Positions 3,682-31,149 of a stretch of DNA of 64,000 nucleotides are shown piece after piece (position 1 is the first letter of the stretch; every line of letters starts with the position of its first letter). This DNA comes from an uncultured Azospirillum sp. (GTDB taxonomy: Bacteria; Pseudomonadota; Alphaproteobacteria; RF32; CAG-239). The stretch lies in the NCBI GenBank assembly GCA_902489795.1, contig CABUBU010000003.1, positions 8,484-72,483 of the forward strand. The letters run 5' to 3'. The notes under the pieces are model-generated. The model worked only from the letters and a program-made list of their open reading frames with translations, did not search any database and was not told the DNA's origin. Made by a program: the position numbers and the translations under genes.

Positions 3682-4269
3682 TTATTCGTAGAACCAGGCA
3701 ATGCCGCATTTGTAAAAAGAGTGACAGTCGCAGAACTTTGCAGCATTTGCCGGCGTCAAAGGAGTGTCTTCTACCTTAAACTCGCCAAAGTCAAGATTGG
3801 AAGGAAAACCGCGAGGAGGTACCACCCCTGTAGGGCTGACAACAAGATATCGCAGTCCGCTGCCGGCGCCCCCCCAGTCGAAAGAGGCAAGCGTGATGCA
3901 GGTTTTTTGGGACAGACCGTTGTAAACAAAAACGAAGCCTTTGTTTTGGGAGATAGATCTGACAAATACTTCACCGTCGAAACGATTCAACAGTCGCTTA
4001 TTCATACCGGTAATTCTGTGAACCCCTTCAACAAGACTTGATTCCAACGCCAGTTTGTTTAACCCCTCATAGCTTTGCTGATCGGCATATAAATTTTTGA
4101 TTTTTTTGGTTGTCGTACTGATGTCGACAATTGTTTTGTCGATATTTATTTTTTCCATTGCCTTGGAGTATGCGGCTATACCTCCGATTGATAAAACGCC
4201 GATAACAGCCAATACACCTAATATTTCGACCATTGAGCGTCCGCTCTGGTTATTGTGGTAATGTTGCAT
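3682..4269 (-). CDS. Type IV prepilin paralog
   Basis: The leader MQHYHNNQSG|RSMVEILGVLAVIGVLSIGG has Gly at -1, Glu at +5 and a hydrophobic N-terminal helix. The body is paralogous to 6760-7356, sharing NLYADQQSYEGL / TLYSGQPNYSGL, GLSQKTCITLAS / GLGKEACVALGS and SFDWGGAGSG / SSDWGSGSGSG. Confidence 0.8.
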   Translation of the reverse strand: MQHYHNNQSGRSMVEILGVLAVIGVLSIGGIAAYSKAMEKINIDKTIVDISTTTKKIKNLYADQQSYEGLNKLALESSLVEGVHRITGMNKRLLNRFDGEVFVRSISQNKGFVFVYNGLSQKTCITLASFDWGGAGSGLRYLVVSPTGVVPPRGFPSNLDFGEFKVEDTPLTPANAAKFCDCHSFYKCGIAWFYE

Positions 4270-4382
4270 ACTGTATAGCCTTCATAAGAACAATTCATAT
4301 AAGAAATATGTTATTCTAAATAAAATTAAAATACAAGTGGTTTATATACCTTTAATACACATATAACCAATTGTTTTATATG

Positions 4383-4394
4383 TTTTTTTTTTTT
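4383..4394. repeat. Homopolymer T12 (A12 on the minus strand) upstream of the pilin paralog
   Basis: tgtttttttttttttgattcc read directly. The tract lies between the stop of 4439-6214 and the start of 3682-4269. Confidence 0.9.
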
Positions 4395-4438
4395 GATTCC
4401 TGAAAAATGTCACAAAAATGTAACAAAATATCAGTCTT

Positions 4439-6214
4439 TTATGGCTTGTATAATTTAAACTTTTTAATACCGATTGCCAAATAGTCTGATTTTTCCGTTT
4501 TGGCGTTTCGTTGAAATCTGATCAGTAAATTTTTATCTTTGCCGAGTATGCTTTGAGAAAAACAGAGTTTTTGGCGGAAAGGTGCTTGTTTGTCGGTGGA
4601 AATTACCCATTTATCCCTGTTTTTTCCATTAATTGATACATCAATTACAGCCGGTTTGTCATGTTTTTCAAACATGAGAATAAATTCAATGTCCAGACAT
4701 ATGTTCTCAACCTTTGAAAGGTCGACTTTAAGATGCAGGCCGTCCGTCCATATTGTTTGGACTTTCTTATAATGCGTGAGGGCGTACCGGACAATCTCGG
4801 CAGGATCAGTTACCTGTTTTCCGAGAGTGTAGGGAGAAGCCTTGTTAAGTTCCGGTTCTGCGGTTTGTTGCAAACTCTTATAAAAATCGGAAGATTTGCT
4901 GAATTCAGAGTCGAGAGCCAACCCATATTTTTCTTCCAAAGTGGGGGATGGTTTCCATAAGTTTCGCCCCAATGCCAGCCCGTTGTTGCTAAAACCAATA
5001 GCTTCCAGCAGCGTCGGCGCAATATCAAGTGTTGTCCAGCGGTGGTTTTGCGGCTTCAAATCTTGTTCGGGGTTGATGATCGTAAAAAATATTTGTCGTT
5101 TTTTACGATTCGGATAAACGGAGTTTTTTCCGTATACAATATGGTCGCCAATAATAGCAATGGTTGTATTATGGGAAAAACTCTGCTTTTGTACCCATTC
5201 GACGAAGTCTGCTGCCATTTTATCGGCGCAAAGAATCACATCGCGCTTATCACCGAATTTTTGACGGCATTCAGGGTCAAGAAAGGTTGTCGGTTCGTGC
5301 GTATCAACCGTTGTAATTATCGAAATAAAGGGCTTTTTGGCCTCAGCCAGATGCAAAATTTCTTTTTTGGCAATGGCGTATAAAACGCTGTCTTTGATCC
5401 CCCAGTCGTTGCCTTTTGCATCGCGAGCAATAGCGGGATATTTCCTTAGCAACTCCTCTTCCCCCGCAACTGTGTCAAAGCCGTGCTGACGGACAAATTT
5501 ATCCGTGTCGGCAAAGGTAATGTCGGCGCTTTTAATAAAATGAGTGTTGTAACCCTTGGTTTTCAAAATATCCGACAAGCAAGTCGCGTTCGGCAGATTG
5601 CTGTTGATGATTGAAAAAAGGTTTTTGAGCTTTGTTTCAGTTTTGTTGGGCAGACCGCAGATGCCGGCAGTCAGGGCAGAAATTGTTGCATCGGCGTACA
5701 TAAGCTGCCTAAAGCCCGGAAAACTGCTGTTTTGCTCCCGCAATGCAGACAGCCTCGGGAGCAGGTTTTGCCCTTCAACATTTCTGTAACCGTCTTCCAT
5801 AGATTCCAGATAAAGGATAATCAGGTTTCGTTTGCCGTTGCTGCCGATAAAGTTTTTTTCATTTGGTGCAATATACTCTTTGTCATAAATATCTGTTGTG
5901 GAAACTATGCCGAAGGCATATTGAAAAAGCTGGAATGTGTAAACAAACAAAGCAACGGCGACGAAGGCAATTACCATTTTGATTTTTGGCGGCAGATAAT
6001 GAACCGTTACGGCAGACAACAAGGCTGATATGCCGCAAACGACAATGAAATAATATCTGACATAGCTTCCGGCAGCGTTAATGTTCTCCGCATAAAAAAG
6101 CAGGTAATCAAACCGCGTACTGCCCCAAAAATGCAAGGTTACAACAGAAATACCCGCTAAAATGCCAAGGACAAAAAACAGGACGGAAATGAAGGCGAAA
6201 TTGCAAAATTTCAT
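4439..6214 (-). CDS. Membrane-anchored sulfatase / LTA-synthase (alkaline-phosphatase superfamily) transferase
   Basis: It has N-terminal multi-pass hydrophobic helices followed by a sulfatase-type domain (NLIILYLESMED, ATISALTAGICG, TTVDTHEPT, IIGDH). The ORF opens with TTG at 6226 and the first ATG is at 6214. The region is visibly more AT-rich than its neighbours. Confidence 0.75.
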   Translation of the reverse strand: MKFCNFAFISVLFFVLGILAGISVVTLHFWGSTRFDYLLFYAENINAAGSYVRYYFIVVCGISALLSAVTVHYLPPKIKMVIAFVAVALFVYTFQLFQYAFGIVSTTDIYDKEYIAPNEKNFIGSNGKRNLIILYLESMEDGYRNVEGQNLLPRLSALREQNSSFPGFRQLMYADATISALTAGICGLPNKTETKLKNLFSIINSNLPNATCLSDILKTKGYNTHFIKSADITFADTDKFVRQHGFDTVAGEEELLRKYPAIARDAKGNDWGIKDSVLYAIAKKEILHLAEAKKPFISIITTVDTHEPTTFLDPECRQKFGDKRDVILCADKMAADFVEWVQKQSFSHNTTIAIIGDHIVYGKNSVYPNRKKRQIFFTIINPEQDLKPQNHRWTTLDIAPTLLEAIGFSNNGLALGRNLWKPSPTLEEKYGLALDSEFSKSSDFYKSLQQTAEPELNKASPYTLGKQVTDPAEIVRYALTHYKKVQTIWTDGLHLKVDLSKVENICLDIEFILMFEKHDKPAVIDVSINGKNRDKWVISTDKQAPFRQKLCFSQSILGKDKNLLIRFQRNAKTEKSDYLAIGIKKFKLYKP

Positions 6215-6703
6215 TATATATTCCAACGTTGCTTATAAGATAATTTCTGCGACAGTTATAGCAATAATAAAGTTTTCATTCAAGCCGGATCAGCAGATAT
6301 CAAATTAAATAAGTGCAAACAGAATGACAGACAAGATTCCCCCATCTGCGGAATAGCCGCTGCCGCAAACGATGCCGATTGTTTTGAAGTTCAAATGCTT
6401 GCTTCCGAAACTCTGCAGGCCTCAGTATTAGATTGGAGTGTCTGCGTTTGCTTGCCTATACCGATGCTTAGAATATATATTATACTGGAGAATTTTGGCT
6501 AAAGCAGCAACAAAAGTTGTGGTCTGGGTATGCGCGCAATTGTGATAATGTTACTGTCAGACTGTTTTCTCATCCCGTTTCAAATAAATCAGCAGTTTCT
6601 GCAAGTCAAACCATCTCGACTTCAATAGCAAAGGAGTTTTTTATACGCTAAACTATAAGCTCTTTATTTATAACCACACGCTTGGCGCGTGGTTTTCATG
6701 ATA

Positions 6704-6741
6704 CAAAAAAAAAGAGGAAAATATTAAATTTTCCTCTTTTT
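6704..6741 (-). terminator. Rho-independent terminator after pilin gene 6760-7356
   Basis: A perfect 10-bp stem agaggaaaat/attttcctct (6713-6737) with a 5-nt loop. It is flanked by A9 on the + strand, which gives U9 on the minus transcript, and by T4 on the other side. Confidence 0.8.
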
Positions 6742-6759
6742 AGTATCTTATTCCGTAGA

Positions 6760-7356
6760 TTAGTTGTAGTTCCACACAACAACGTTCGTATCACCGGAAC
6801 CGTTGCAGCCTTTTGCTGCTGTAGCCAAAGACAACGGTAATGATGCATTTGCGGTTGTGCCGGAATTAGTCGGTAACTTTGTTACAGCAGCGTTACCGCT
6901 AGCATCAACACCTACACCGATCAAACCGGAACCAGAGCCTGAACCCCAGTCAGATGAACCAAGAGCCACACAGGCTTCCTTGCCCAAACCGGTAAAAGTA
7001 ACCCAGAAACTGCGACCGTCAGTACTCGCTTCAACAAATACCTTGCCATTGAAAGCATTAAATGCTTCTGTTGCCGAGGTCGTCTTTTTTCCGTTCAACA
7101 TTTCAGCGCCGATCGCACCCATCTGGATGGCGACTTGAGTGGTCAGACCTGAATAGTTCGGCTGACCGGAGTACAATGTACGAACGTTGGCAACGGTCAT
7201 AGAAACCTGATCCATAACTTTTGATAATTTGAACTTAGACATAGCTTTCGAATAACCGGCGATACCGCCAACCGACAAAACGCCGATAATGGCCAGAACG
7301 CCGAGCATTTCAACCATGGAACGTCCACTCTGTTCACTCTTGTATAAAGTCTTCAT
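6760..7356 (-). CDS. Type IV prepilin, candidate major pilin
   Basis: MKTLYKSEQSG|RSMVEMLGVLAIIGVLSVGG has Gly -1 and Glu +5. A GGGAGA RBS lies 7 nt upstream of the ATG at 7356. The gene has its own promoter and a strong terminator. The longer ORF start at 7386 would lie at or upstream of the predicted transcription start. Confidence 0.85.
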   Translation of the reverse strand: MKTLYKSEQSGRSMVEMLGVLAIIGVLSVGGIAGYSKAMSKFKLSKVMDQVSMTVANVRTLYSGQPNYSGLTTQVAIQMGAIGAEMLNGKKTTSATEAFNAFNGKVFVEASTDGRSFWVTFTGLGKEACVALGSSDWGSGSGSGLIGVGVDASGNAAVTKLPTNSGTTANASLPLSLATAAKGCNGSGDTNVVVWNYN

Positions 7357-7392
7357 TTTTTTCTCCCAAAAAAAATCATATTCCAAGTAATT

Positions 7393-7421
7393 ATAATAGC
7401 CAATTTTTAGCTATAATACAA
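7393..7421 (-). promoter_or_regulatory. Candidate sigma70 promoter for the pilin gene
   Basis: On the minus strand the reading is TTGTAT, a 17-nt spacer, then TATTAT (-35 at 7416-7421, -10 at 7393-7398). Confidence 0.5.
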
Positions 7422-7459
7422 GTCGTTTTTAGCCTGATACGATAAAATCCGCCACAAAA

Positions 7460-8008
7460 TTATTCCATTGTCCACAGGACTTTGGATCCGTTGCGACAGA
7501 TTTTCTTCGCTTCCGGCCGGCTAACCGGCAGCTTGAAGGTCTCTTCTCCCCAACTGAAGCTCTGACGGTTGTCTTTGCCGACGATGGTGACCTGTAAGAG
7601 GCCTAATTCTTCCGGTCGTTCAAAACGGTAGGCCGCAAGGGCAATGCATTCCCCCGTGTTCAATCCGCTGTAAACGACATCAAAACTGCGCTCTCCGGGC
7701 ATCACGGTATCGCCGTTTTCCCCGCTTCCGATTTTTACCGGTTTCCCGAGAGCATTAATCAATTTGCCGCCATCATAGGACAAATTGGTTAACATATTGT
7801 TATCAATTGTCGACTGGGTGCTCAATCCCCAGTAATCAACCCGGCTGGCATAGTTTTTGCGAACCAGCCGGGCGATTTCTTCCACCTGCAGTGCCGCTTC
7901 TTCCACTTTTTGGTTTGGCGAAACATATTGCCGGACAATAAGTACGATCGCTGCCGTCATTATCGCAAGCAAAACATACAGTTGGCGTGTTTGCAGATGC
8001 CTGTTCAT
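7460..8008 (-). CDS. Pilin-like protein lacking a canonical prepilin leader
   Basis: It has an N-terminal hydrophobic helix (LYVLLAIMTAAIVLIV) but no G/E+5 signature. The body shares the pilin paralog motifs (KNYASRVDYWGLSTQ, GLNTGECIALAA). Its start lies 2 nt after the stop of the platform gene. Confidence 0.55.
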   Translation of the reverse strand: MNRHLQTRQLYVLLAIMTAAIVLIVRQYVSPNQKVEEAALQVEEIARLVRKNYASRVDYWGLSTQSTIDNNMLTNLSYDGGKLINALGKPVKIGSGENGDTVMPGERSFDVVYSGLNTGECIALAAYRFERPEELGLLQVTIVGKDNRQSFSWGEETFKLPVSRPEAKKICRNGSKVLWTME

Positions 8009-8009
8009 G

Positions 8010-9134
8010 TTACATACCCATCGAACTGGTGATTTGGTCTTGCATTTCGAACGTGCCCATAACCGCCCAAGCGATAACGCCGGAAACCATCAGCAGGGCG
8101 ACCATGTTCAAAATGCTGGCCTTTTGTTCAATAACGTAGGCGGATTCGTCCAGCCAGTTGTTGGCCAGATTTTCCAACGCTTCTTCAAAGTTATCCATTT
8201 CCGAATAAATCTTCAGGTCGCCGATAATTTCCGCGTCCGGAAAATCCAGTTTCGTTTTGGACAGTGCCTGACCTAAGTTGTCACCGTTGTTGACGAACAC
8301 CAGAGCCTTGTCTATCCGCTCCTTTAAATATCGTGTCGAATCTTTACGCAAAGCGCGCATCGCGTTCGATACCGGTGTTCCGCCCTTGACCAGCGCCGAC
8401 ATGGCCAAAAGCCAGGTAATGCCGACAAAGGTCTTATACAGTGACCATGGCGGCAGGTGGTCGGCAATCGTCCGTGTTGGGCCGGTCCAAATGCCGATCG
8501 TCAGGTAAATCAAAAGCATAATGGCCGGCAAAATCGAAAAAGCGACGACCCAGTATTCCTGAATCCAGCTGGACAGCTCGACCAGGGTTTTGGCCGTGCC
8601 CTGCCATCGCGTGTTTGGCGCGGCTTCAATCATCGGCGGCACCATGAAGGCGCCGATACCGTAAATGATCAAAACAACCATCATCATCAGAAACGCCGGG
8701 TATGAAATGGCGCTGATAATCGGACGGATCATCTTGGTGGTGCCTTCGGTCACGCGGATCAGGTTGTAAAGCGCGCCTTCCAGGTCGGAAACGTCGCCCA
8801 CCGAAAGCATCAGCCGCTCACGATCCGGCGCCCATCCTTTGAGCGCGTCGGAAAACGACATACCGTTCTGCAGTCCGTAACCCCACTGGGCAATGGCAAT
8901 CGCCAGCGGTTCGCTCGGATTTTTGCCGTCGTTGGTGATGGTGGCATGCAGCATGTCGAGCGCGTTCATCAGTGAAAAACGGTTGCTCATCAATGACGCG
9001 ATTTTCCGATAGATTTTTAAACGTGTTTGCCCGGATGTCAGGCAGATGATCTTGGCATAATAAATTTCTATGGCGTTAACTTTTTTTAGTGCCTGACTGA
9101 GGTTTGAGGCCGAATCTCTTTTCTTTTCATCCAT
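8010..9134 (-). CDS. GspF/PilC-family inner-membrane platform protein
   Basis: At 374 aa it has the size and topology typical of the T2SS-F family, with three hydrophobic segments and two cytoplasmic helical domains. It sits immediately downstream of the GspE-family ATPase. Confidence 0.85.
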   Translation of the reverse strand: MDEKKRDSASNLSQALKKVNAIEIYYAKIICLTSGQTRLKIYRKIASLMSNRFSLMNALDMLHATITNDGKNPSEPLAIAIAQWGYGLQNGMSFSDALKGWAPDRERLMLSVGDVSDLEGALYNLIRVTEGTTKMIRPIISAISYPAFLMMMVVLIIYGIGAFMVPPMIEAAPNTRWQGTAKTLVELSSWIQEYWVVAFSILPAIMLLIYLTIGIWTGPTRTIADHLPPWSLYKTFVGITWLLAMSALVKGGTPVSNAMRALRKDSTRYLKERIDKALVFVNNGDNLGQALSKTKLDFPDAEIIGDLKIYSEMDNFEEALENLANNWLDESAYVIEQKASILNMVALLMVSGVIAWAVMGTFEMQDQITSSMGM

Positions 9135-9177
9135 CTCTTATTATCTCCCTGTCTTCCGATAACTCCGGGTCTTGAGG

Positions 9178-10842
9178 TTAATATACCGGGCGCTGGTCCA
9201 AAAGGCCGCACCAGCGTTCCACTTCGTCAAGGTCAATCAGTCCCTTCAGCATCCGTTCCAAAGCGGCGTCTTTCAGTGTCCTTCCGTTTAAATCGCCGGT
9301 CCAGTAGTCGATGGCCTTGCGGGTTTCTCCCGCGATCATCAATTCCAGAAACGTGCCGTCCGGCAGAATCATTTCCTGTACGCCCAAACGTCCTTTGATG
9401 CCTCGGCCTTCGCAGAATTTGCAGCCGGGGCCTTTCAAATAGGTGTTTTCTACGCCGAAATCGCCAAGTGCCGTTCGCAGACGTTTGACTGCCGGATTGT
9501 CCAGCCTTTCTTTGACCGGTACCCGGCAATAGGGACACAGTTTGCGGAACAGACGTTGGGAAATCAGCCCTTTCAGCAGTTCCGGGTCGCTCAGCATATA
9601 AGACTGCACGCCCATGTCGCGCAGACGGGTTACAATGGCTGGCGCCGAGTTGGCGTGCAGGGTGGCCCATACCAAGTGGCCGGAAAGCGCACCTTTGAAC
9701 GTCAGGCTGGCGGTGGCCAGCGAACGGATTTCGCCCACCATCAGCACGTCTGGGTCGGAACGCAGTGCCGCCGACAGCGCCAGCGTAAACTGAACCGTCT
9801 TTTCTTCTTCCGTGTTGGCGTTGGTTACCGGCATTTGCCGGGCGCCCGGGATCGGATATTCCGGCGGGTCTTCTACCGTCAGCAGATTGATTTCGCCGTT
9901 TTTCTCTTTGATCAGTTTAATCATGTTGCGTTGCAGCAACGTCGATTTTCCCGAACCGGTCGGGCCGGCCACGATGTTCAGTCCCACCGGCGCCGCGCGC
10001 AGGCGGAAAAACAGATCCTGTTCGTATTCGCCGCAACCCAGAGCCGCCAGGTCGTCGTTGCCGTCCGGATTGTCGTCGGCGTAAAGAATACGCATAACCA
10101 GATATTGCGAACCAAACGCAATCGGATTAAATTGCAGACGAATGGCCAAAACGTTGTGCGGCAGCATCAGCTTGCCTTTGGAACCGCGCAGCGGGGTAGA
10201 ACCCAACTTTTGCGCGCCCTGAAATTCGTTCTGAGCATAGTTGGCATCGGAAATGTCGGCGGAAGCAAAAGCGGCGCGCACAAATTGGTCGCCCCATTCC
10301 TTGCTGTATTCCATTTCTTTGATCATAACGCCGTTGGCACGGAAAAATATTTCCGTACAGTTGTCAGAAACGACGACATGCACGTCGGAAACTTTCATCG
10401 ACGAAGCGCGTTTGATGATATTGACGAAGTCCCTCTGCATTTGCAGTCGAGCCAGGTCTTCGTCGTCTTCGGAAAAGACTTGGTTACGTTCGGCCATCGC
10501 ATAGATGGTCGCCAGCTCGTTTTGCGAAATGTAAACCGGGGATTTCATTTTGATCCCCTTCTTTTCCGCAATACTCAGAAAACTTAAGACCGGGCCGTCA
10601 AAACGGTGGTCTTTGGAAATAAGCAGTGTACCGTCGGCAAAAAGAGCCAGCCGCCGTCTGGTTTCGTCGTTGATATTAAGCGCAGAGCCGTCGGGCAGCT
10701 TGGCTTTGGGCATCGTACAAAGATAATTGTCATTGGCGAAAAGGCCTTCGATGAAGTCTTTTGCACTCTGCTTCTTCGGCTGCTCGTTCTGAGCAGCCGA
10801 AGAAGTGTTGTTCTCTTTGTTGTTTGCGCTTTCTTCTACCAT
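9178..10842 (-). CDS. GspE/PilB-family secretion/pilus assembly ATPase
   Basis: Walker A is GPTGSGKST. The Asp box and Walker B region read LRSDPDVLMVGEIR, and the His box reads GHLVWATLHANSA. A C-terminal tetracysteine motif (CPYC...CKFCEGRG) is present. Confidence 0.95.
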   Translation of the reverse strand: MVEESANNKENNTSSAAQNEQPKKQSAKDFIEGLFANDNYLCTMPKAKLPDGSALNINDETRRRLALFADGTLLISKDHRFDGPVLSFLSIAEKKGIKMKSPVYISQNELATIYAMAERNQVFSEDDEDLARLQMQRDFVNIIKRASSMKVSDVHVVVSDNCTEIFFRANGVMIKEMEYSKEWGDQFVRAAFASADISDANYAQNEFQGAQKLGSTPLRGSKGKLMLPHNVLAIRLQFNPIAFGSQYLVMRILYADDNPDGNDDLAALGCGEYEQDLFFRLRAAPVGLNIVAGPTGSGKSTLLQRNMIKLIKEKNGEINLLTVEDPPEYPIPGARQMPVTNANTEEEKTVQFTLALSAALRSDPDVLMVGEIRSLATASLTFKGALSGHLVWATLHANSAPAIVTRLRDMGVQSYMLSDPELLKGLISQRLFRKLCPYCRVPVKERLDNPAVKRLRTALGDFGVENTYLKGPGCKFCEGRGIKGRLGVQEMILPDGTFLELMIAGETRKAIDYWTGDLNGRTLKDAALERMLKGLIDLDEVERWCGLLDQRPVY

Positions 10843-10851
10843 TTACTTCGC

Positions 10852-12372
10852 TTATCTGATAAACATACCTTGGCCTAAGCTCGGAATTCCCTGTGTGGCG
10901 TTAATCTGGCGTCCGCGGGACGAATTGCCGCCGTTATTGCCGCTGCTGTTCGGGTTGTTCGGATCATAAGACTGCTTAAGGGTAATGTCGGACGGAACCG
11001 GTTCTCGATCAAGAATGCCGCCGGCTGAAAAATACAACACGTCTTTGGCGTTGTCTTTGACCGCACTAAGATAAGTCTGGGTAATTTCGTCGATGGTAAA
11101 GCCGTTTCTCAAAGTGGTGCCGACTTTGGCCATGAAGACATCGCCTTCCGTGTTGATCAGTTTAGCCGCCAGTTCTTCGCCCTGACCGGTGATTTCCATA
11201 ATTGCATATTCGCTGCTGAGTTTGACTTTTTCCGGCGACAGAGGCGTCGTCAGGTCAATGCCGCTTGCGGTGGCAAACGGGTTTTTGCGTCCGCTCTTGC
11301 TTTCTGCTTTGGCCGCGGCAATTTTTTTCTTGGAAGATTCGATTTCCGCTTCCAGCCGGGTTTTCAAGATCGAAATCTGGCTTTCGAGGTTGGCCACCTT
11401 CTTGTCGTGGGCGATCCGTGCCGCTTCCGCTTTGCTCTTAAGATCGTCGGCCTTTTGCTTCAGGATGTTCATCTTTTTCGTGTTGTCATCCAGAATTTGT
11501 CTGATTTCGGCGTCTTTCTTTGCCATTTGGGCATAAACTTCCGCATTCGTCTTGATCCATTTCTGGATTGAACCCAGCATCGTCGCCTTGTAGGCTTTGA
11601 CAATTTTTTCCTGCCGCAAGGCTTCCAACGCGGCGGCGGCTTCTTTCAGTTTTGTTTGTTCGGCCACCATCAGGCGTTCCTGCTCGTTTTCCCATTCAAT
11701 CCGTTTTCTTTCCTCTTCTTCTTTGCGGGCTTCTTCCTCCTGCTGGGCTTTCAGTCTTTGCGCCTTGACTGCGGCAATTTCGTTCTGAACCCTTTCCTTT
11801 TTCAGTTCCAGATTAAGCAGGGTGGTCTGTTTTTCCAAATCGGACATTTTGGTAAACAGGTCGTTGCTGATCGACGGTGAAATGTTTTCGTCAAAGCCGC
11901 CGGTAGCTTCCGCTCCGAGGAGCTTTCCGGTTACCATCGGAACCGTTGCCGGCGGCGTGTCTGAAACGGTTTTTACTGCCGGCGCATCGCCTTCAATCAT
12001 CATGTTGAGGCCGTCATTGCCCGCCGGCGCGTTTCGGGCAGGCGCCGTTTCGTTTTTAACGGCAATGGAAATTTGTTCGGAGGAATTGTCGTCCGTGCTT
12101 CCTTCCATCGGAATGACGTCAGTGGCAACGCTGTCGGTCGGTTGGGACGGAGAAAGGAGACCGTCTCCACCGGGCAACGATACGTCGCCCATCTGTTCGT
12201 CGAACAGGGAAATCTCTTCCGGTGCGGATGCCCCTTCGTCTGCCGTCGACAAAGAAATGGTATCGTCGTCTTCCAGTAAAGTGACGGTTTGCGCGGCAGC
12301 CTGATCGGCCAGCAGTCCTGCGGCAATTACAACAGCCAGACCGCATAACGTATTTCTAAAACTATAATGCAT
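10852..12372 (-). CDS. Secreted coiled-coil pilus assembly protein (possible PilP-like C-terminal domain)
   Basis: An AAGGAG RBS lies 6 nt upstream of the ATG at 12372. The protein has a signal peptide (LCGLAVVIAAGLLADQAAAQ), a long Lys/Glu-rich coiled coil, and a C-terminal beta-type domain (YAIMEITGQGEELAAKLINTEGDVFMAKVGTTLRNGFTIDEI). Function is inferred from context. Confidence 0.6.
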   Translation of the reverse strand: MHYSFRNTLCGLAVVIAAGLLADQAAAQTVTLLEDDDTISLSTADEGASAPEEISLFDEQMGDVSLPGGDGLLSPSQPTDSVATDVIPMEGSTDDNSSEQISIAVKNETAPARNAPAGNDGLNMMIEGDAPAVKTVSDTPPATVPMVTGKLLGAEATGGFDENISPSISNDLFTKMSDLEKQTTLLNLELKKERVQNEIAAVKAQRLKAQQEEEARKEEEERKRIEWENEQERLMVAEQTKLKEAAAALEALRQEKIVKAYKATMLGSIQKWIKTNAEVYAQMAKKDAEIRQILDDNTKKMNILKQKADDLKSKAEAARIAHDKKVANLESQISILKTRLEAEIESSKKKIAAAKAESKSGRKNPFATASGIDLTTPLSPEKVKLSSEYAIMEITGQGEELAAKLINTEGDVFMAKVGTTLRNGFTIDEITQTYLSAVKDNAKDVLYFSAGGILDREPVPSDITLKQSYDPNNPNSSGNNGGNSSRGRQINATQGIPSLGQGMFIR

Positions 12373-13633
12373 AGATAGCTCCTTCATATTCCCAAACACC
12401 GGTATCGGGGTTGTATTTTATCATATTAATCTTAAGTCCTGAAAATTTTGTTAACAAAGTGCTCCAGACTTTTGGATTATAGTTTGAACTGAATTGAAAC
12501 TTGACGGAACGGTAGACGTTCTGCTGAGGAGATGTGTAAACCTCGTCCGACAGCGAAACTTCCTGATCGATCGACTGGAAAAATTCGTTCAGATTGATTT
12601 TCAGATCAAGCATCGATTTCGTAGGTTCCGAAAGTTCCGTTTTTATCTCGTCCAGACTCAAAGCCGCCATAACGCTGGTTCCCGTATCGGAAATGGAACG
12701 GGCGGAAAACTGAAGACCGGAAGCGTTAAGCGCTTTGTCGGCAATTGATATACGGCCGAACATTCTGGACCAGCTGGTGCTGGCGCCACCGCTTGTACAG
12801 GTTATTTCGCCGATCTTCCAGCCGGGAGGCATGATCTGCAGCAGATCCATGATCTTGTTGTTGCAGCTGTTGAGGATGGCTATCGGATCGGGCAGGTTTT
12901 CCCACGGTTTCGGCTCCGGCGGAATTTCTTCCGTCTGAACTACCTTGGGCTGCACCGGAACAATCACCGGAACCGTCGGCGTGGTATCGAAAAGGCTCAT
13001 GAAGAGCTGGTACGCAACATAAAGAACAACAAAGGCACCGGTGCCGGCAATGACGTAAAACATCTTGCCTTTGGTGTTGATCTTTTGCAGCTTTACTTTG
13101 CTGCCCCGCGCCAGCAGGTCTTCAAGCTCGGGGTACAGAGTGTCTTCGATGTTCCATTCCGGCGGTGCAATCTTCAGTTTCCAGTCCGGCACCATCAGCA
13201 TGCTCATAAACTGCTTTTTGGCGTCTTCTTCGGAAAGGTAAAGCATATCGCCGTTCGCCAGGATAACGTCGTCGCGTACGCAGACGTACCACCAGCCGTT
13301 CGGAACTTTGAAAACGGCGACGAAAGAGGGTTGATCGCTCAACGCCGTTGCCAGGCCGATTGCCGCCGCGTTCATGCCCGGTTTGTAACCGTCGGCGGAA
13401 ACGCAGATGCCGAACTGCGGCGTTTTTCCTTTTTTGATGCAGTAAAGATCGGCGCCTTCCAAAACCCCTTGCGAAGATTCTACGATTTCGGCCAGAGGTG
13501 CGTCCTGGTTCTGCAAAGACTGCCAGAACAAACTGGTTGCAAACTCAACCCCGCCGGAAACAAAATGCGTTCCCCAGCTCCGCTCCTGGTCGGTTTTGTA
13601 ATCGTCATCTGACATTTTGGCATCATCTAACAC
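12362..13633 (-). CDS. Bitopic inner-membrane pilus assembly protein (PilO-of-type-IVb-like by position)
   Basis: 423 aa with a single central TM helix (MFYVIAGTGAFVVLYVAYQLFMSLF). It lies between the secretin and the coiled-coil protein. The family is not recognised at sequence level. Confidence 0.55.
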   Translation of the reverse strand: MLDDAKMSDDDYKTDQERSWGTHFVSGGVEFATSLFWQSLQNQDAPLAEIVESSQGVLEGADLYCIKKGKTPQFGICVSADGYKPGMNAAAIGLATALSDQPSFVAVFKVPNGWWYVCVRDDVILANGDMLYLSEEDAKKQFMSMLMVPDWKLKIAPPEWNIEDTLYPELEDLLARGSKVKLQKINTKGKMFYVIAGTGAFVVLYVAYQLFMSLFDTTPTVPVIVPVQPKVVQTEEIPPEPKPWENLPDPIAILNSCNNKIMDLLQIMPPGWKIGEITCTSGGASTSWSRMFGRISIADKALNASGLQFSARSISDTGTSVMAALSLDEIKTELSEPTKSMLDLKINLNEFFQSIDQEVSLSDEVYTSPQQNVYRSVKFQFSSNYNPKVWSTLLTKFSGLKINMIKYNPDTGVWEYEGAIYAL

Positions 13634-13663
13634 GTTGGTTTCCTTAATCTAAGAATTTTCAGT

Positions 13664-15289
13664 CTAGTCGTGTACTCTGGTTTCCGGGTTGAGCGGGCTT
13701 TCGAGAACGACCGGGGTTAAAATAATGACCAGAATGCTTCTGACTTTTTCTGCCGTGGCGGAACCGCCCAGCAAAGAGTTGGTAGCCGAACCAACGCCGC
13801 GTTTTTCGGCGCTGTTTTCAACGCGTTCGTAACCGGTCAGAACCAGGGATTCTCCCGACTTCATAGCAACTTCCTGCGTAAAGCCGCGTGATTCGATGAT
13901 CGGGTTTTGAATATATTCACCGCCCTCGCTCTGCTCTTCACCGGTGTTGGAACCGCTGATCAGGTCGACTTTTTCCAAAGCCAGCAGGTCGGACAGGGTA
14001 AGGTCAAACTTCAAAAGCAGTCGTCCGTGTTCCAGAATCCGCGGCAAAACGTTCATAGTAAAACCGGTTTCGATTTCTTCTGTTTCCGTCGACAGGTCAT
14101 AGTAGTTGGAGTCTCCGCCGCTGTTGGTTTTGGTGATTTCGGAAATGTAGTTTTGCTTCTTGACAACCTGAATCGGAGCCGACTTGTTGTTCAAAGTGGT
14201 AACCGTGCCGCTCGTGATCAGGTTGGTCGTAGCCTGAGTCGATAATGCCTGAATGCTGGCATTGATGTTCCAGTTGCCGGGCATCAGGGTCATCGTCAGG
14301 TTTTGGGTAATGTCTGATGACAGGCCGCTGGCAGCGCTGGCAACGCCAAAGCTGGTTTTTCCGTCTTTGAAAGCAGAACTGAGGTTGAGGCCAAAGGTGT
14401 CAGAATCGTTAACCGTAACCTGTAAAACTTTAACACTGATGGCAACCTGACGGGATAAACGAACGTTCTGCTCGTTGATATAGTGAGCCACACGTCTGAT
14501 TTCGTTCGGCGTTGCCGTCAGCGAAATGGTGCCGTTGGTCGGATCAAGCGACAGCTGAGCATCTTTTCCGATCATTGAGGTGATCGATTTTTCAATGTTG
14601 CTCCACAGTTCAAGTTCGGCCGTATTGGTCAGCGTCAGAGATGACGAACCGCCGCTTCCCGAGTCGGTGGACGAGCCGCCGATGTTGCTGCTCAGGCTCT
14701 GTTTGGTCGGCAAACTGTACAAAACGAAGGTTTTGGTCATAAATTTGTAAAAGTAAATTTCGTTTTTGTCGTATCTCCACCAAATGCCGAAACGTGAGCC
14801 GATTTCATCCAGCAGGCCGCTTAAGGGACCGCGATAGGAAACCAGCATTTTGGTTGGGTCAGCCCAGTGTGCGTTCATCTGTTCGGGCGAAGGCGCGTTT
14901 TCTTCCGCATTCTTCAGCAAGTCTTCTTCCAGGTGCGGCGCGTAGCGAACCTGAATGGAAGTGATTTTGTTGATCATGTCGCCGACTTCATACAAGGTTA
15001 TCGGACGGTTGCTGATCAGGGTAATGCCTTCTTTGGTTTCGAGATATGCCGGAATTGGAGCGCCTTCGTATTCGACAACGCTCTTGTCGCCGAGCCAGAT
15101 TTCGTTTTTAACCCGGACAACGTCGTCCGGTGCCGATTTGCTCGGTTCTTTTGCCTTTTCCTTAAGTTCGGTCGTTGCTTCCACTTCCCGTTCCAGCGTG
15201 GCATCCATGCTGGTGGCAACGGAGCAGGCGCCGATCAAAGCGACCAGACCCAGACTCAGGCTGTATTTAATCCAATTATTCATACGCAT
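13664..15289 (-). CDS. Lipoprotein secretin (type IVb PilN/TcpC-like)
   Basis: It has a lipobox LIGAC and an N0-like domain (LSGLLDEIGSRFGIWWRYDKNEIYF). The secretin domain reads ISVKVLQVTVNDSDTFGLNLS..., IQALSTQATTNLITSGTVTTLNNKSAPIQV, ETGFTMNVLPRI and GESLVLTGY...SILVIILTPVVLE. Alternative starts are at 15295 and 15283. A GGAGG RBS is best spaced for 15289. Confidence 0.9.
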   Translation of the reverse strand: MRMNNWIKYSLSLGLVALIGACSVATSMDATLEREVEATTELKEKAKEPSKSAPDDVVRVKNEIWLGDKSVVEYEGAPIPAYLETKEGITLISNRPITLYEVGDMINKITSIQVRYAPHLEEDLLKNAEENAPSPEQMNAHWADPTKMLVSYRGPLSGLLDEIGSRFGIWWRYDKNEIYFYKFMTKTFVLYSLPTKQSLSSNIGGSSTDSGSGGSSSLTLTNTAELELWSNIEKSITSMIGKDAQLSLDPTNGTISLTATPNEIRRVAHYINEQNVRLSRQVAISVKVLQVTVNDSDTFGLNLSSAFKDGKTSFGVASAASGLSSDITQNLTMTLMPGNWNINASIQALSTQATTNLITSGTVTTLNNKSAPIQVVKKQNYISEITKTNSGGDSNYYDLSTETEEIETGFTMNVLPRILEHGRLLLKFDLTLSDLLALEKVDLISGSNTGEEQSEGGEYIQNPIIESRGFTQEVAMKSGESLVLTGYERVENSAEKRGVGSATNSLLGGSATAEKVRSILVIILTPVVLESPLNPETRVHD

Positions 15290-15965
15290 TCTCATCCTCC
15301 ATAGTCTCGACTACCAAGACGCGGTTTCCTTTATAAAATGTTGCGATCGGTGCCGGCCGTGCTCTGGCAAAGGCTCTGACCAAAGCCGAACTGACGTCGG
15401 CAAAACGCCCCCGGAACATAGCTCCGGCGGTTAGGGTATAGTTGCGGTTAGTGTTCCAGATCAGCCGCCAGCCGGCGCGGTCACACCATTCCGTCAACAA
15501 CAGCTTCAGGCTTTTTCCTTCTTCAGCCAGCCAGTCTTCAACCGGATCGTCGGCATTGTTTCCATCTCCTGCGCCGGCTGCACCGTCGTCGCTGACGTTC
15601 TGCTGGGTTTCGTCAACGGTGACTTCTTCTTCGTAATCAACGACTTCTCCGTCAATTGAAGGCGGAATGGTGGCGGACATGTTGCTGCCGGCACCGGCCT
15701 GAACGACTAGGTGGTCGCGCGGCGTTCTTTCGCCGTATTCGCGATAATCGGCGGCAACTTTCGTATAATTTACAAATTCGTCTTCGGCGGCGCAGCCGGT
15801 AATGCCCGGAGTGGGATATTGTCCGGCCGGACAGGTTTGTTTGACCGTCGTGCCCGGAGCAGCCGGCGCTTCCGAATAGTTGTATTCATAATCGTTGTTG
15901 GTTGCACAACCCGATAACAGCAGAACTCCTAAAAAACCGGCTGATAAAAGAAATTTGTAGTTCAT
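15276..15965 (-). CDS. TcpQ/PilL-like outer-membrane lipoprotein of type IVb pili
   Basis: It has a signal peptide plus lipobox (MNYKFLLSAGFLGVLLLSGC). The C-terminal segment LTEWCDRAGWRLIWNTNRNYTLTAGAMFRGRFADVSSALVRAF...ATFYKGNRVLVV matches the TcpQ-type domain pattern. The ORF could also start at 16016. Confidence 0.65.
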   Translation of the reverse strand: MNYKFLLSAGFLGVLLLSGCATNNDYEYNYSEAPAAPGTTVKQTCPAGQYPTPGITGCAAEDEFVNYTKVAADYREYGERTPRDHLVVQAGAGSNMSATIPPSIDGEVVDYEEEVTVDETQQNVSDDGAAGAGDGNNADDPVEDWLAEEGKSLKLLLTEWCDRAGWRLIWNTNRNYTLTAGAMFRGRFADVSSALVRAFARARPAPIATFYKGNRVLVVETMEDENAYE

Positions 15966-16044
15966 TTTTGTGTTTCCTAAGCTGTTTTTATTCATATTTT
16001 TTAACCTATCATACATATTGGAAAAAAATAATCAAGCAGATATT

Positions 16045-17646
16045 CTACCACGACTGGTAATACAAATTCCGCCCTTTATTGCTTTCCTGTACAGTGTTGT
16101 TAACGTTTTCATTTATCCGTAAGGTTCTGATAATGAACGAATTTGGCTCACGGGATGTGAAGACGGTATTTATTTTTTCGTACTCTACACCCTTATTAGT
16201 TAAAATATTGTGTAACAAATTTAATCTTTTTTGCTGCAGTTCAAAAGAGCTGGTCCGGTCAATTCTGATTTCGAGAATGACGCTCGGATCCTCGATGACT
16301 TTGTTGGCGAAAGCCTGTATCCAGCGAAGCGTGGTACCTGAAATTTCGGCTCTGCCCGGCTGGAAGGAAAGTCTCATTTCTGCCGGCAGGATTTTGGCGG
16401 GGGATTTGTCGCGGCTGAATGCGGAGAACAACCCTCTGCGCTTTTTCGGTTTTTCTTCCGTTTGCAGGTTTTCATTGTCGTCCGCGGTCGTTTCGGCGTT
16501 TTCGTCCGAGCTACCGAACATTGAGGCCAGACTCTTCAGCAGCCCGCCGCTTTTGTCGTCGTTTTCGACCGTGTCGCTTTCCGCGGCGGTTTCCTCGTTT
16601 TCTTGTTTTTTGTTCTTCTTCGGCGAAACCAGCTGCGGCGTCAGGTTTTTGTCGTTCATGATGTCTTCCGGAATCGGGATCAGAATGTTTTTGACCATTT
16701 CCGCCACCTGAACTTCTTTGCCGTCTTCAGCGATTTTTTCCGGTGCGTTGAGGGCGGCGTTGATTTCCGATTCGCTCATGCCTTTGTAAAACTCTTCGTC
16801 AAGAACGTGGTTGTTTTTGGGGTTGCGGGTGCCTTTGGCGACCACCCACGGGTTGTCCGCGTTGCCGGCCGTGTCTTTTTCGCTCATTTCATGCCATTCG
16901 CGTGGTGCCGCTTTCGGGGCTTCCGCGGTTTGTTCGACGGCGATCTTGTCAATGTTCAGTTTGCCGCCGTCGGCCATGGCGATCTGATTGTCGGGCGCTT
17001 TGCTTGCAATTTCCACCTTTTCGGCGGCGCCGTTGCCGAATTCAAGCGGGATCGCCTCGTTGTCGGCCTGTTGTGGAAGCGTTGCGGCAAGCAGCTGCGG
17101 CCGAATCGTTTCCGCGGGCTTTTCGGTGTTCTGCCTCTCCGCGGCCGGTTCCGTTTGGTTTGTTCCTGCTTCTTCTGCAAAAACGTTGTCTGCGACCGTC
17201 GCCGGTTGCGGCGCTGCGTCGGCGACAACGGCTGGCCGTTTGGCGACCGGCTGCGAGTCGTTGCTTTCCGTCATGTTTTTTACCGGATCGAAAACGGAAG
17301 CGGCAGCTGAATGTTCAAGCGGAATGTCGGCGGCGTCTTCTATCGAATTGATGCGGATGCCTTCTTCTTCGTCGTCGAAAACAAACAGATTTTTATCAAT
17401 GAAAATTTCCCGTTCGGCCGGCTTCGGGGCCAGTGCAGCCAGAGAAAAGGCCTGAACCGGCGTTGAGGCAGAATAGTTGACCGTCGGCGCTTCGTGCTGA
17501 AAAAAGAGCGCTATGTTTTTGTCGGGAATTGATATTTCCGCATTTCTTCGTTTTTCGGGAACGGCAAACAATCCATTGACCGCCCATATCGTAAACAGAG
17601 AAACGACAAAACTGTTAACAAATATTTTTAAAGTCTTTTTTCTCAT
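16045..17646 (-). CDS. Membrane-anchored Pro/Ala/Glu-rich protein with a degenerate OmpA/MotB-like C-terminal domain
   Basis: An AGAGGGG RBS lies 8 nt upstream of the ATG at 17646. It has an N-terminal TM helix and a long low-complexity acidic middle region. The C-terminus (LRLSFQPGRAEISGTTLRWIQAFANKV...ILEIRIDRTSSFELQQKRLNLLHNILTNKGVEYEKI) resembles OmpA-C-like peptidoglycan-binding domains. It is the first gene of the pilus operon. Confidence 0.55.
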   Translation of the reverse strand: MRKKTLKIFVNSFVVSLFTIWAVNGLFAVPEKRRNAEISIPDKNIALFFQHEAPTVNYSASTPVQAFSLAALAPKPAEREIFIDKNLFVFDDEEEGIRINSIEDAADIPLEHSAAASVFDPVKNMTESNDSQPVAKRPAVVADAAPQPATVADNVFAEEAGTNQTEPAAERQNTEKPAETIRPQLLAATLPQQADNEAIPLEFGNGAAEKVEIASKAPDNQIAMADGGKLNIDKIAVEQTAEAPKAAPREWHEMSEKDTAGNADNPWVVAKGTRNPKNNHVLDEEFYKGMSESEINAALNAPEKIAEDGKEVQVAEMVKNILIPIPEDIMNDKNLTPQLVSPKKNKKQENEETAAESDTVENDDKSGGLLKSLASMFGSSDENAETTADDNENLQTEEKPKKRRGLFSAFSRDKSPAKILPAEMRLSFQPGRAEISGTTLRWIQAFANKVIEDPSVILEIRIDRTSSFELQQKRLNLLHNILTNKGVEYEKINTVFTSREPNSFIIRTLRINENVNNTVQESNKGRNLYYQSW

Positions 17647-17673
17647 TAACTTGACCCCTCTAATGGTTAACAA

Positions 17674-18027
17674 TAAATTAAAATAAGGGAATTGGCAAGT
17701 ATATTGTTTGTTGAAAATTAAATTTTAACGCTTTTTCCCGGCGTTTGTACGGACTGCGGAAAAGAACGGATTGCACGAGGACTAATATAAATAAGTGTGC
17801 ATGCCCGGATGTCGGATGTCTGCATTCCGGCGCGGAGTCTTTCGTTTTTATTGTCCAAAAATGGCCGCTTTTAACTATGAATTTTTTGTTACAGGGGAAA
17901 ATATTTACTAAAAACAATATGTTATCAAAAATGCGATGGGCGTGATAATGCTGGTAATTTTGGAAAAAATCAGGTATTCTAAAAATGTATAAGTAAAGCA
18001 CTTTTAATTAATTAAAGGAGAAAAACT
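17674..18027. promoter_or_regulatory. AT-rich divergent control region between the pilus operon (-) and the T4SS pilin genes (+)
   Basis: A 354-bp non-coding, AT-rich gap separates two divergently oriented first genes. It contains TTTTGTTACA at 17884-17893 (see findings). No unambiguous -35/-10 pair could be assigned. Confidence 0.4.
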
Positions 18028-18369
18028 ATGCAATTTATTAAAAGAAATATCTGGACACTGGCCGCGATGGTTCTGTTTGTAACTGTTGCGATGGTCGGTG
18101 ACGCCGCGGCGGTTGACGGCACCAGCCTGATGACCCAGGCGAGCAAGAAGGTCTCTAACGTATTTGAAGCCGTTAGAACGATCATCTTTATTCTGGGTGG
18201 TTTCGGTCTGGTCGGCGTTGCTTTTGCCGCCATTTTCGGTAAAGTAAACTGGAAATGGTTTGCCGCTTTGGCCGTCGGTCTGGCTATTCTGGCTGCTGCG
18301 AACGCCGTCGTTCAGTATGCTGCCGGTTCCAAAGCCGGTACGGGCGTAACCGATACCTTCGGTGTATAG
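18028..18369 (+). CDS. virB2: VirB2/TrbC-family T4SS pilin
   Basis: An AAAGGAG RBS precedes it. The protein has a signal peptide and two hydrophobic helices separated by a short charged loop (IIFILGGFGLVGVAFAAIFGKVNWKWFAALAVGLAILAAANAVV), at 113 aa. Confidence 0.8.
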   Translation: MQFIKRNIWTLAAMVLFVTVAMVGDAAAVDGTSLMTQASKKVSNVFEAVRTIIFILGGFGLVGVAFAAIFGKVNWKWFAALAVGLAILAAANAVVQYAAGSKAGTGVTDTFGV

Positions 18370-18387
18370 TCCCGGTGACTTAACCAC

Positions 18388-18437
18388 GGGGAGGGCTGCC
18401 AGAAGTTTTGGCTAGCCAATGACAGCCCTCCCGTTTT
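18388..18437 (+). terminator. Hairpin plus short T run after the first virB2 (possible attenuator)
   Basis: A 10-bp GC-rich stem gggagggctg/cagccctccc (18389-18398 / 18423-18432) is followed by gtttt. Confidence 0.45.
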
Positions 18438-18464
18438 ACTGCTAACAAAAGAAGGAAAAAGAAG

Positions 18465-18830
18465 ATGTTGTACGTAAAATTAAAGAAAATAATAATATTT
18501 GCATTGGTTGCGTTCTTAGCTTCTTCAATTTTATTTGCAACCAATTCTTATGCCGCACTGTTTGGAGATCTGACGAGCAAGGGCGCCGAAATCTTCAAAG
18601 GCATGCGCGAAATTATCTATGCGGTTGCCGGTTTCGGTATCGTGGCGATTGCCATCGGCGGTTTTTTCGGCAACTTCAACTGGAAATGGTTGGGGGCCAT
18701 CATCATCGGCCTGATGGTCATTGCCCTGACTGCCGGCATCATCAATTATATGGTGGAAGAAACGGTTATTACGCCGGACATGATCACTGATACTCTGATC
18801 AGCGGCAATGACTCGGGGTTGGCAAAATAG
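18465..18830 (+). CDS. VirB2-like pilin paralog
   Basis: It has the same two-helix layout and the conserved core IIYAVAGFGIVAIAIGGFFGNFNWKWLGAIIIGLMVIALTAGIINY, which is paralogous to 18028-18369. Confidence 0.75.
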   Translation: MLYVKLKKIIIFALVAFLASSILFATNSYAALFGDLTSKGAEIFKGMREIIYAVAGFGIVAIAIGGFFGNFNWKWLGAIIIGLMVIALTAGIINYMVEETVITPDMITDTLISGNDSGLAK

Positions 18831-18857
18831 TTTGGACAGAGATTTTAGGAGGGTGCT

Positions 18858-19868: not shown

Positions 19869-19884
19869 TGTATCGTTAAAGTCG

Positions 19885-19920
19885 AAAAATGCCGCTCATT
19901 CTCCCAGGGCGGCATTTTTT
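19885..19920 (+). terminator. Rho-independent terminator after the VirB2 gene set
   Basis: aaaaatgccgc-(13-nt loop)-gcggcatttttt read directly. Confidence 0.75.
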
Positions 19921-19994
19921 CCGTCCGGCGGCAGGCGCCGTCGGAAGCCCGTTGATCCGTTGCCGGTGCTTGTCAACCGCGGCAAGCTTTTTTG

Positions 19995-20023
19995 TTGCAT
20001 AAAAAAAACTTTTCCTGTAGAAT
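19995..20023 (+). promoter_or_regulatory. Candidate sigma70 promoter of the virB3-virB11 operon
   Basis: TTGCAT (19995-20000), exactly 17 nt of spacer, then TAGAAT (20018-20023). A GAAGGA RBS and the ATG at 20049 follow. Confidence 0.6.
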
Positions 20024-20048
20024 CATAAAAAACGAAGGATGGATTGAA

Positions 20049-22761: not shown

Positions 22762-22836
22762 GAAACGTAAAATAGATTTATAAAACAGTTTTTTTTTGCT
22801 ATTATTAAAATGACATAGACCAAGACGGAGGGTGGT

Positions 22837-24387: not shown

Positions 24388-24389
24388 CG

Positions 24390-30056: not shown

Positions 30057-30068
30057 CGAAAGTAAGAG

Positions 30069-30827: not shown

Positions 30828-30945
30828 ATTTGTTAACCATTTTGTTCTATAACGTAAGCAGATCAGAGTTTATTTAAAAAATGTTAGACTTTTGCGAAAA
30901 AAAAGTTTAATTTCAATATATCTTATCATGAACGAGGATGTTTCG

Positions 30946-31134: not shown

Positions 31135-31149
31135 TGGAAAGTTGCCGGT

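Follow-up and report, generated by a model that had tools for sequence, protein, structure and literature searches.

The 64,000-nucleotide stretch of DNA analysed here (the window), which comes from an uncultured human-gut Azospirillum sp. (GTDB lineage RF32; CAG-239), carries on its minus strand a cluster of pil genes belonging, close to certainly, to a complete type IVb pilus system of the class of the bundle-forming pilus (BFP) and of plasmid R64. The cluster lies back-to-back with the operon of a VirB-type type IV secretion system (T4SS), recognized by family searches at positions 18028..43566 of the plus strand. This neighbourhood had been pointed out in a preliminary description of the sequence, and it is not a product of chance: the pil and virB operons represent an ancient, chromosomal and vertically inherited pair, in which adjacency is strongly preferred and not obligatory. 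As to the role of the cluster, we favour with moderate confidence the view that it encodes a retractile adhesion pilus serving a non-conjugative T4SS. The functional link between pilus and T4SS that we infer has, taken by itself, about an even chance of being real.

The region between positions 3682 and 17673 (minus strand) contains 11 co-oriented open reading frames (ORFs), nine of which were named directly by family searches in Pfam and NCBIfam. All the pil genes listed in the preliminary description, the second prepilin included, were found in their places with significant family matches, in the case of the first gene (orf542) by fold comparison. The class assignment rests on comparisons with Pfam, NCBIfam and PDB, and the best matches obtained (BfpD, BfpB, bundlin, TIGR02520, PAP_PilO and TcpQ) are all type IVb; none corresponds to a type II secretion system (T2SS) or to a type IVa (T4a) pilus. 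The PilN secretin scored 279.6 bits against TIGR02520 (PilN, type IVB), just below the cut-off of 287.65, 113 bits against MshL, 39 against GspD and 27 against PilQ, the MSHA, type III secretion system, T2SS and T4a models being far lower. Its best match in PDB is BfpB (190 bits), followed by the T2SS protein GspD with 20.7 bits. The PilQ ATPase reached 300 bits with BfpD, 177 with GspE and up to 150 with PilB, and bundlin (1zwt) is the best match of the major pilin, no other one having E < 0.1. The matches to PF10671 and PF06864 exceed the gathering scores, and the pilins gave no N_methyl/GFxxxE match in Pfam or NCBIfam. The genes follow the order L-N-O-P-Q-R-S/pilin, as in R64, in R721 and in uncharacterised type IVb (T4b) clusters of a Bosea megaplasmid and of an Escherichia coli plasmid, which agrees with the R64-like order proposed previously. 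An ordinary T2SS or T4a pilus, the outcomes that the preliminary description had set against its own assignment, is ruled out as far as the comparisons with Pfam, NCBIfam and PDB can tell, the scores of their models and structures being far lower than those of T4b.

When species-representative genomes were scanned with the secretin, 80 loci of 55-98% identity were obtained, all of them from uncultured gut, rumen or faecal Alphaproteobacteria. Names deposited for these relatives include 'Azospirillum sp. 51_20' and 'Candidatus Scatocola'; presumably their genomes correspond to the RF32-like lineage of GTDB, which is uncultured and common in human, ruminant and poultry guts. Gene arrangements were counted in the 60 loci (species) with at least 7 kb of sequence upstream of pilN. 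The layout is divergent in 53 of them, with virB3-virB4 on the opposite strand just past the first pil gene, and in two the virB operon is placed head-to-tail behind the pil operon. The divergent layout persists as PilN identity falls from 100% to about 37%, and over the same range the surrounding gene order and the pilin end of the operon are fluid. A dnaJ/DUF1349 flank is conserved in several species.

Across the order, PilN was found in 197 of 201 genomes and VirB4 also in 197 of 201, with all 22 genera represented; genome sizes range from about 1.1 to 2.0 Mb, most genomes having 1.2-2.0 Mb. PilN is single except in five of the 197 genomes, which give two matches (in one of these, G146, an identical duplicate on two contigs), and VirB4 has two matches in a few genomes. 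PilN and/or VirB4 are lacking in five genomes, three of which lack both. All five keep the unlinked genes for the type IV coupling protein, the small ATPase and the peptidase, and in G130, which is called 99% complete and lacks both PilN and VirB4, VirB9 is located at a contig end; for these reasons we consider the absences to be assembly gaps. In G161 and G175, which also lack both proteins, a true loss may have occurred instead. Joint loss of the two systems was considered and rejected, as the absences fit assembly gaps and the unlinked genes are kept in 5/5 cases.

Outside the order, 20 of the 121 genomes representing families of the class possess a PilO homologue. Three other families (L095, L096 and L097; genomes G314, G225 and G230, of 1.4-2.5 Mb) exhibit the same divergent virB4-virB3 / orf542-pilL-N-O-Q-R layout, their proteins being identical to those of the window at 62% (VirB4), 60% (PilQ) and 38% (PilN) of positions. 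Taking into account that these three families keep the layout, the pairing predates the order. In relatives the locus is found on contigs that reach 300-440 kb and, being chromosomal in almost every member of the order, the pair looks like a fixed apparatus of cell contact and not like a mobile element. When the pil operon was compared with the plasmid collection by megablast, no near-identical DNA was obtained. Literature searches on RF32 or CAG-239 in connection with secretion systems or pili brought up nothing relevant to the pil/T4SS module.

The pil operon proper extends from 17646 to 6760 on the minus strand, from the orf542 gene to the major prepilin. The orf542 product (16045..17646) is bitopic and consists of an N-terminal transmembrane segment, a long acidic low-complexity linker and a C-terminal domain with the OmpA/MotB/Pal fold of peptidoglycan-binding type. 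A Pfam search gave no match for this protein, even for its C-terminus at E up to 1. Its C-terminal ~100 amino acids are strongly conserved among 54 relatives, and an AlphaFold model of the conserved C-terminal ~90 residues, built from the alignment of relatives, has a mean pLDDT of 78, with a folded core above 90. All 50 PDB matches listed by Foldseek for the model are OmpA-like peptidoglycan-binding domains (OmpA-C, MotB, Pal and relatives), with probability 1.00. The protein is thus OmpA-like at the level of the fold, as shown by the Foldseek matches to its C-terminal model, sequence profiles alone being silent; in calling it an OmpA-like anchored protein the preliminary description was right at that level.

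Downstream of orf542 lie the genes of two lipoproteins: a PilL/TcpQ/BfpG-type secretin partner (15276..16016; PF10671 TcpQ, 2.9e-15; lipobox LLSGC), which is 40% identical to a TcpQ-family protein of a Bosea plasmid, and the PilN/BfpB-type secretin (13664..15295; lipobox LIGAC). They are followed by PilO (12362..13633), an assembly protein of the R64 PilO/PilO2 family and BfpC-like, which matches PF06864 (PAP_PilO) along its whole length (5.2e-15) and is 25% identical to the PilO2 proteins of Bosea and E. coli plasmids; as it has a single central transmembrane segment, it must be bitopic. The next product, a long PilP-like protein (10852..12399), is made up of a signal or anchor sequence, an acidic region, a Lys/Glu coiled coil and a C-terminal PilP domain. 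Its own match to TIGR03021 (7e-5; 27.4 bits) lies below the cut-off of 34.65. As 25 of 27 PilP-like homologues from related genomes match this family (best 3e-9), the assignment is firmer at the family level. The assembly ATPase of the R64 PilQ/BfpD type (9178..10842; T2SSE, 7e-65) is 39% identical to the ATPase of the Bosea plasmid, and the inner-membrane platform protein of the PilR/BfpE/GspF family (8010..9134) contains two PF00482 (T2SSF) repeats (2.4e-24).

Three pilin-like proteins are encoded in the region. The first (7460..8008; Bundlin 2.7e-9, PilS 3.6e-4) has a pilin fold with the N-terminus MNRHLQTRQLYVLLAIMTAAIVLIV and lacks the Gly(-1)/Glu(+5) cleavage motif. Its gene is better conserved than the other pilin-like genes of the operon, with a homologue after pilR in nearly all relatives. 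The major prepilin (6760..7356, within an ORF at 6760-7386; PilS 2e-11, Bundlin 2.6e-10) has the leader MKTLYKSEQSG and the predicted cleavage site G|RSMVE; its N-terminal helix is invariant and its C-terminal domain hypervariable. The second prepilin (3682..4269; Bundlin/PilS domains), a paralogue 38% identical to the major one, has the leader MQHYHNNQSG and the same predicted cleavage. Both mature prepilins are 185-197 residues long, carry Bundlin/PilS domains and have at +1 an Arg, that is, not a Phe. The site G|RSM(V/I)E is present in 47 of 51 motif-bearing ORFs (one of the 51, L099, being probably spurious); the outgroup families are represented here by two genomes. As terminator-like hairpins follow both prepilins, at 6709..6741 (a 14-bp stem with a T run, closing the pil operon) and at 3626-3657, both on the minus strand, the core operon ends with the major pilin and the cassette genes beyond it are separate units.

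The window belongs to contig C3 of a 1.62-Mb, 62-contig, 95%-complete assembly. Neither a prepilin peptidase nor a second ATPase lies within the window, as the preliminary description had stated for the peptidase and a retraction ATPase, and a search of the genome located them elsewhere; not all components are clustered. The only A24 prepilin peptidase of the genome (224 residues) is encoded on contig C27 beside an ion-channel gene, and shows 28% identity to its counterpart in the T4b cluster of the E. coli plasmid. PilT/BfpF-like ATPases are found on contigs C1 and C8. That of C1 (324 residues) is PilT/DotB-like and shows, along most or all of its sequence, 36% identity to the second ATPase (BfpF position) of the E. 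coli T4b cluster and 31% to that of the Bosea cluster. This type is present in all 61 genomes of the order that were sampled, and 27 related loci have an orthologue (60-72% identical) at a distance of 0.7-4 kb past pilR; based on both results, we consider that the second ATPase belonged to the pil cluster ancestrally and was relocated in the genus of the window. In the T4b clusters of a distant alphaproteobacterium (L106:1458-2911) and of Bosea pANAM02 (L084:22579-23589), the gene comes directly after pilin or platform genes, and this adjacency speaks for the second ATPase being part of the pilus system. The copy on C8 (7146-8133, minus strand) is frameshifted, its N-terminal ~100 residues and its Walker-A half being in different frames, which points to a pseudogene or to an error of assembly. 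Two intact copies exist in many relatives. With the R721 proteins as queries, tblastn found no homologue of PilV, PilT, PilM or PilU in the genome; Rci was not searched for.

The partner T4SS operon encodes three VirB2/TrbC proteins, VirB3, VirB4, two VirB8, a VirB9/CagX with a SPOR domain, a 1372-residue repeat protein, a 1666-residue VirB10, VirB11 and four proteins without a family match. Its VirD4-type coupling protein is unlinked and encoded on contig C20 (10696-12867, plus strand). A third VirB8 paralogue, also unlinked, lies on contig C2 (48741-49520, minus strand). Among plasmids, the T4SS has its closest relative in the transfer region of Microvirga pMVF16-3 (VirB4 38%, VirB11 41%, VirB9 36% and VirD4 35% identical), which has the same T4SS gene order and a MobA/MobL relaxase and contains no pil genes. 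VirB11 is followed in the window by a low-GC gap of 1.6 kb (43567-45226), a place held by VirD4 in that plasmid. Between 53732 and 63271 the minus strand encodes a 973-residue M23-peptidase protein, an 832-residue protein without matches and two enlarged TrbL/VirB6-like proteins (447 and 913 residues). The M23 protein could be either a cell-wall hydrolase of the T4SS or a secreted antibacterial effector.

By analogy with the BFP, TCP and R64 pili, the A24 peptidase of C27 would cut the prepilins at their short leaders ending in G|RSM(V/I)E, and the PilQ ATPase together with the PilR platform would polymerise them. PilO and the long PilP-like protein would connect this inner-membrane motor to the PilN secretin, which the PilL/TcpQ lipoprotein would assist, and orf542 would tie the machine to peptidoglycan through its OmpA-fold domain. 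The BfpF-like second ATPase probably renders the pilus retractile. Such a pilus would make and tighten the contact with a target cell, allowing the relaxase-less T4SS with its giant VirB10 to engage that cell. The logic would be that of mating-pair stabilisation in the conjugative IncI plasmids, here chromosomally fixed and apparently uncoupled from conjugation.

Several observations weigh against this reading, and part of them favours a first alternative, namely that pilus and T4SS are neighbours that function independently of each other: the former would be a stand-alone organelle of adhesion, aggregation or twitching, like BFP or TCP, and the adjacency an inherited accident. In five of the 60 species no virB gene was found within 10 kb of the pil cluster, or the virB genes lie on another contig, and neither system has been lost. 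Clusters unlinked from a T4SS, which the preliminary description had held to speak against a pairing, thus occur in part, yet VirB4 is still present elsewhere in the genome of all seven species without the divergent layout. Several outgroup genomes likewise have a pil cluster with no virB gene nearby, as does the Bosea plasmid with its related cluster. Each operon moreover has its own conserved promoter block.

The preliminary description had assumed that both operons share a 354-bp control region. A divergent intergenic region does exist (17647..18027), measuring 354 bp from the longest ORF and 381 bp from the ATG at 17646, which is preceded by a GAGGGG ribosome-binding site; its architecture, two separate conserved blocks with a variable spacer in the middle in an alignment of 12 genomes, lends little weight to the sharing. 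Promoter calls are consensus matches only. The pil-side block includes the promoter-like TTGCCA-17-TATTGT (17698-17670) ahead of the ribosome-binding site, and the virB-side block an invariant GAATTTTTTGTTACAGG (17879-17895), a -10-like GATAAT (17944-17949) and a conserved leader of ~75 nt. TTTTGTTACA is found on the virB side in all 21 relatives checked and is not kept in the outgroup families. As the promoter blocks are separate and TTTTGTTACA is confined to the virB side, a regulation of the main pil operon in common with virB does not follow from the sequence, and this also counts against a joint function.

The window contains 11 occurrences of the degenerate motif TTTTGTKMMA, where 2.9 are expected. 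TTTTGT(G/T)ACA is present in two copies upstream of the second prepilin (4408-4428), and TTTTGT(G/T)(A/C)(A/C)A before virB2 (17884-17893), before the gene that follows virB4 (22731-22740) and, as a palindrome (53646-53673), upstream of the gene of an Xre-type regulator with two helix-turn-helix domains (52597-53577). We consider the latter motif a candidate regulon operator. Its distribution hints that the accessory pilin and the T4SS may share a regulator, a hint that does not extend to the main pil operon. A shared operator for both operons was rejected, as TTTTGTTACA is restricted to the virB side and not kept in the outgroups; its recurrence before the second prepilin is a weak link at best.

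Against independence speaks the survival of the divergent layout, amid a fluid gene order, down to the lowest PilN identities and in three other families. Both systems are furthermore near-universal in genomes of 1.1-2.0 Mb, where dispensable genes are normally lost. We therefore give this alternative roughly one chance in four and retain the retractile pilus serving the T4SS as the better explanation. Two further points qualify the latter. The Arg at +1 and the leaders of 10-11 residues, which follow from the predicted G|R cleavage, are atypical for type IVb pilins, for which we used as a yardstick a globular domain of bundlin/PilS type, ~180-200 residues, a +1 residue other than Phe and a leader of ~15-30 residues. 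In addition, the lack of a relaxase match, which favours a non-conjugative T4SS, is a negative that covers three families (PF03432, PF08751 and PF03389) in a 95%-complete, 62-contig draft.

The latter point bears on a second alternative, that the T4SS is a domesticated or active apparatus of conjugation (or of DNA release or uptake), with the IVb pilus stabilising mating pairs in the gut as in TP114 and R721. The only pairing of a IVb pilus with an MPF_T system that has been characterised experimentally is indeed conjugative: transfer of the IncI2 plasmid TP114, both in broth and in the mouse gut, has been shown to require the pilus, which stabilises mating pairs (PMC9045228, PMC7508951). The genome retains a VirD4-type coupling protein on C20, and the closest plasmid T4SS lies in a transfer region with a MobA/MobL relaxase. 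The lack of matches to the three relaxase families argues against conjugation, and so does that of PilV, PilT and PilM homologues and of a shufflon. The locus is also chromosomal and near-universal, with one copy in almost every genome and conserved synteny, and not patchy, and its pil and T4SS proteins are each nearer to different alphaproteobacterial plasmid systems than to R721. All in all, conjugation is improbable.

Comparison with IncI2 plasmids shows that a IVb pilus joined to a VirB-type T4SS is nothing new in kind, so that the preliminary description, which called this unusual, was right only in part. R721, which is typed as MPF_T, has pilL/pilM, virB1-virB11/virD4 and pilN-pilV interleaved on one strand, and both R721 and TP114 physically join a PilL-N-O-P-Q-R-S IVb pilus to a VirB2-B11/VirD4-type T4SS, as in the window. 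They differ from the chromosomal locus of the window in being plasmid-borne and conjugative, with a MOBP relaxase, and in having their own PilM, PilT (transglycosylase), PilU (peptidase) and PilV adhesin with shufflon; they have no second ATPase, whereas the window system has a BfpF-like one. Identities between R721 and the window are of 29% (PilQ), 24% (PilN) and 24% (VirB4). The pairing in the window appears, from these sequence comparisons, to have arisen independently of IncI2. Descent from an IncI2-like element was rejected, as the nearest relatives are, for the pil proteins, the T4b systems of Bosea and E. coli and, for the T4SS proteins, the transfer region of Microvirga pMVF16-3, and both sets of proteins are far from R721. 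The same sequence distances indicate that the two halves come from different alphaproteobacterial lineages.

Plasmid R64 (IncI1) resembles the window in its L-N-O-P-Q-R-S order, in the families represented (TIGR02520, PF06864, TIGR03021, PF08805) and in the pairing of its pilus with a T4SS; it differs in that this T4SS is of the MPF_I (Dot/Icm-like) type and conjugative, and in its PilV shufflon. We know of no retraction-type ATPase in R64. The BFP system (BfpA-L of enteropathogenic E. coli) and the E. coli plasmid T4b cluster provide the best structure matches (BfpD, BfpB, bundlin), and BFP shares with the window a lipoprotein secretin with a TcpQ/BfpG-type partner and a second, BfpF-like ATPase. 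In contrast, BFP is encoded on a virulence plasmid with no adjoining T4SS, holds the peptidase, transglycosylase and minor pilins in its own operon, and is without the OmpA-fold first gene and the long coiled-coil PilP of the window. Within the plasmid collection, the T4b clusters of Bosea pANAM02 and Methylorubrum extorquens AM1 are the closest (PilQ 37-40%, PilN 28%), the Bosea order being TcpQ-PilN-PilO2-hypothetical-ATPase-PilR-second ATPase. Unlike the window locus, they are plasmid-borne, have no T4SS within 20 kb, carry the second ATPase in the cluster, and no orf542 homologue was detected in them. PAPI-1 of Pseudomonas aeruginosa also encodes a IVb pilus beside a T4SS, and this pilus is needed for contact with the recipient (PMC5297154). 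It is, however, an integrative conjugative element of patchy distribution, with a GI-type (MPF_G) T4SS. The window system stands apart from all of these by being chromosomal and near-universal in its order and by its giant VirB10, with no relaxase (of the three families) and no PilV detected.

A bolder version of the favoured reading, which we regard as possible and distinctly less likely than the pilus-assisted T4SS in general, is that pil and virB form one co-evolved organelle of contact and injection. The pilus would reel in a host epithelial cell, a protist or a bacterium, and the T4SS, with its CagY-like giant VirB10, would deliver proteins and not DNA. If true, the way of life of an entire order of uncultured gut and rumen Alphaproteobacteria with small genomes would be defined by this organelle, and the pilin cassette, which varies between strains, would determine the choice of target or serve to evade immunity or phages. 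The presence of the module in virtually every genome is a strong hint of life by direct contact with another cell. No new kind of machine is revealed, and the interest lies mainly in the lifestyle of an abundant uncultured gut lineage, for which pilin, secretin and giant VirB10 offer handles for enrichment, imaging or antibody capture.

The cassette that follows the major pilin varies strongly even between close relatives. DNA identity to the closest one, L002, is ~95% over 7095-25203 and breaks inside the major pilin gene; 5912-7095 is unalignable and 3782-5912 is 74% identical. At the protein level, the machinery is 95-100% identical, the second prepilin 70%, the major pilin 64% and a membrane enzyme of the sulfatase / phosphoglycerol-transferase family 38%. 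The gene of this enzyme (4439..6226, minus strand; PF00884, 2e-21; a partial match to an OpgB-type NCBIfam model, 7e-46) lies between the two prepilin genes in a patch of 40% GC, as against ~51% for the operon, and is present in only ~10 of the 80 relatives, with 29-51% identity. Pilin phospho-form transferases of the PptA type modify pilins in Neisseria and, by analogy with them, the enzyme is a candidate pilin modifier. Together with the variable C-terminal domain of the pilin, it might determine or mask the specificity of the surface.

Past the second prepilin, a stretch free of genes (3157-3625) contains about three copies of a 141-bp tandem repeat, which appear as identical hairpins and give rise to a repetitive artefact, the ORF at 3083-3622. 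Contig C34 encodes one more prepilin paralogue (2812-3357, minus strand), which has a canonical G|YTLIE cleavage site and shares the C-terminal Cys/Trp motif; its downstream neighbours resemble, as judged by eye from the sequence, a DksA-type regulator and a Maf-type protein.

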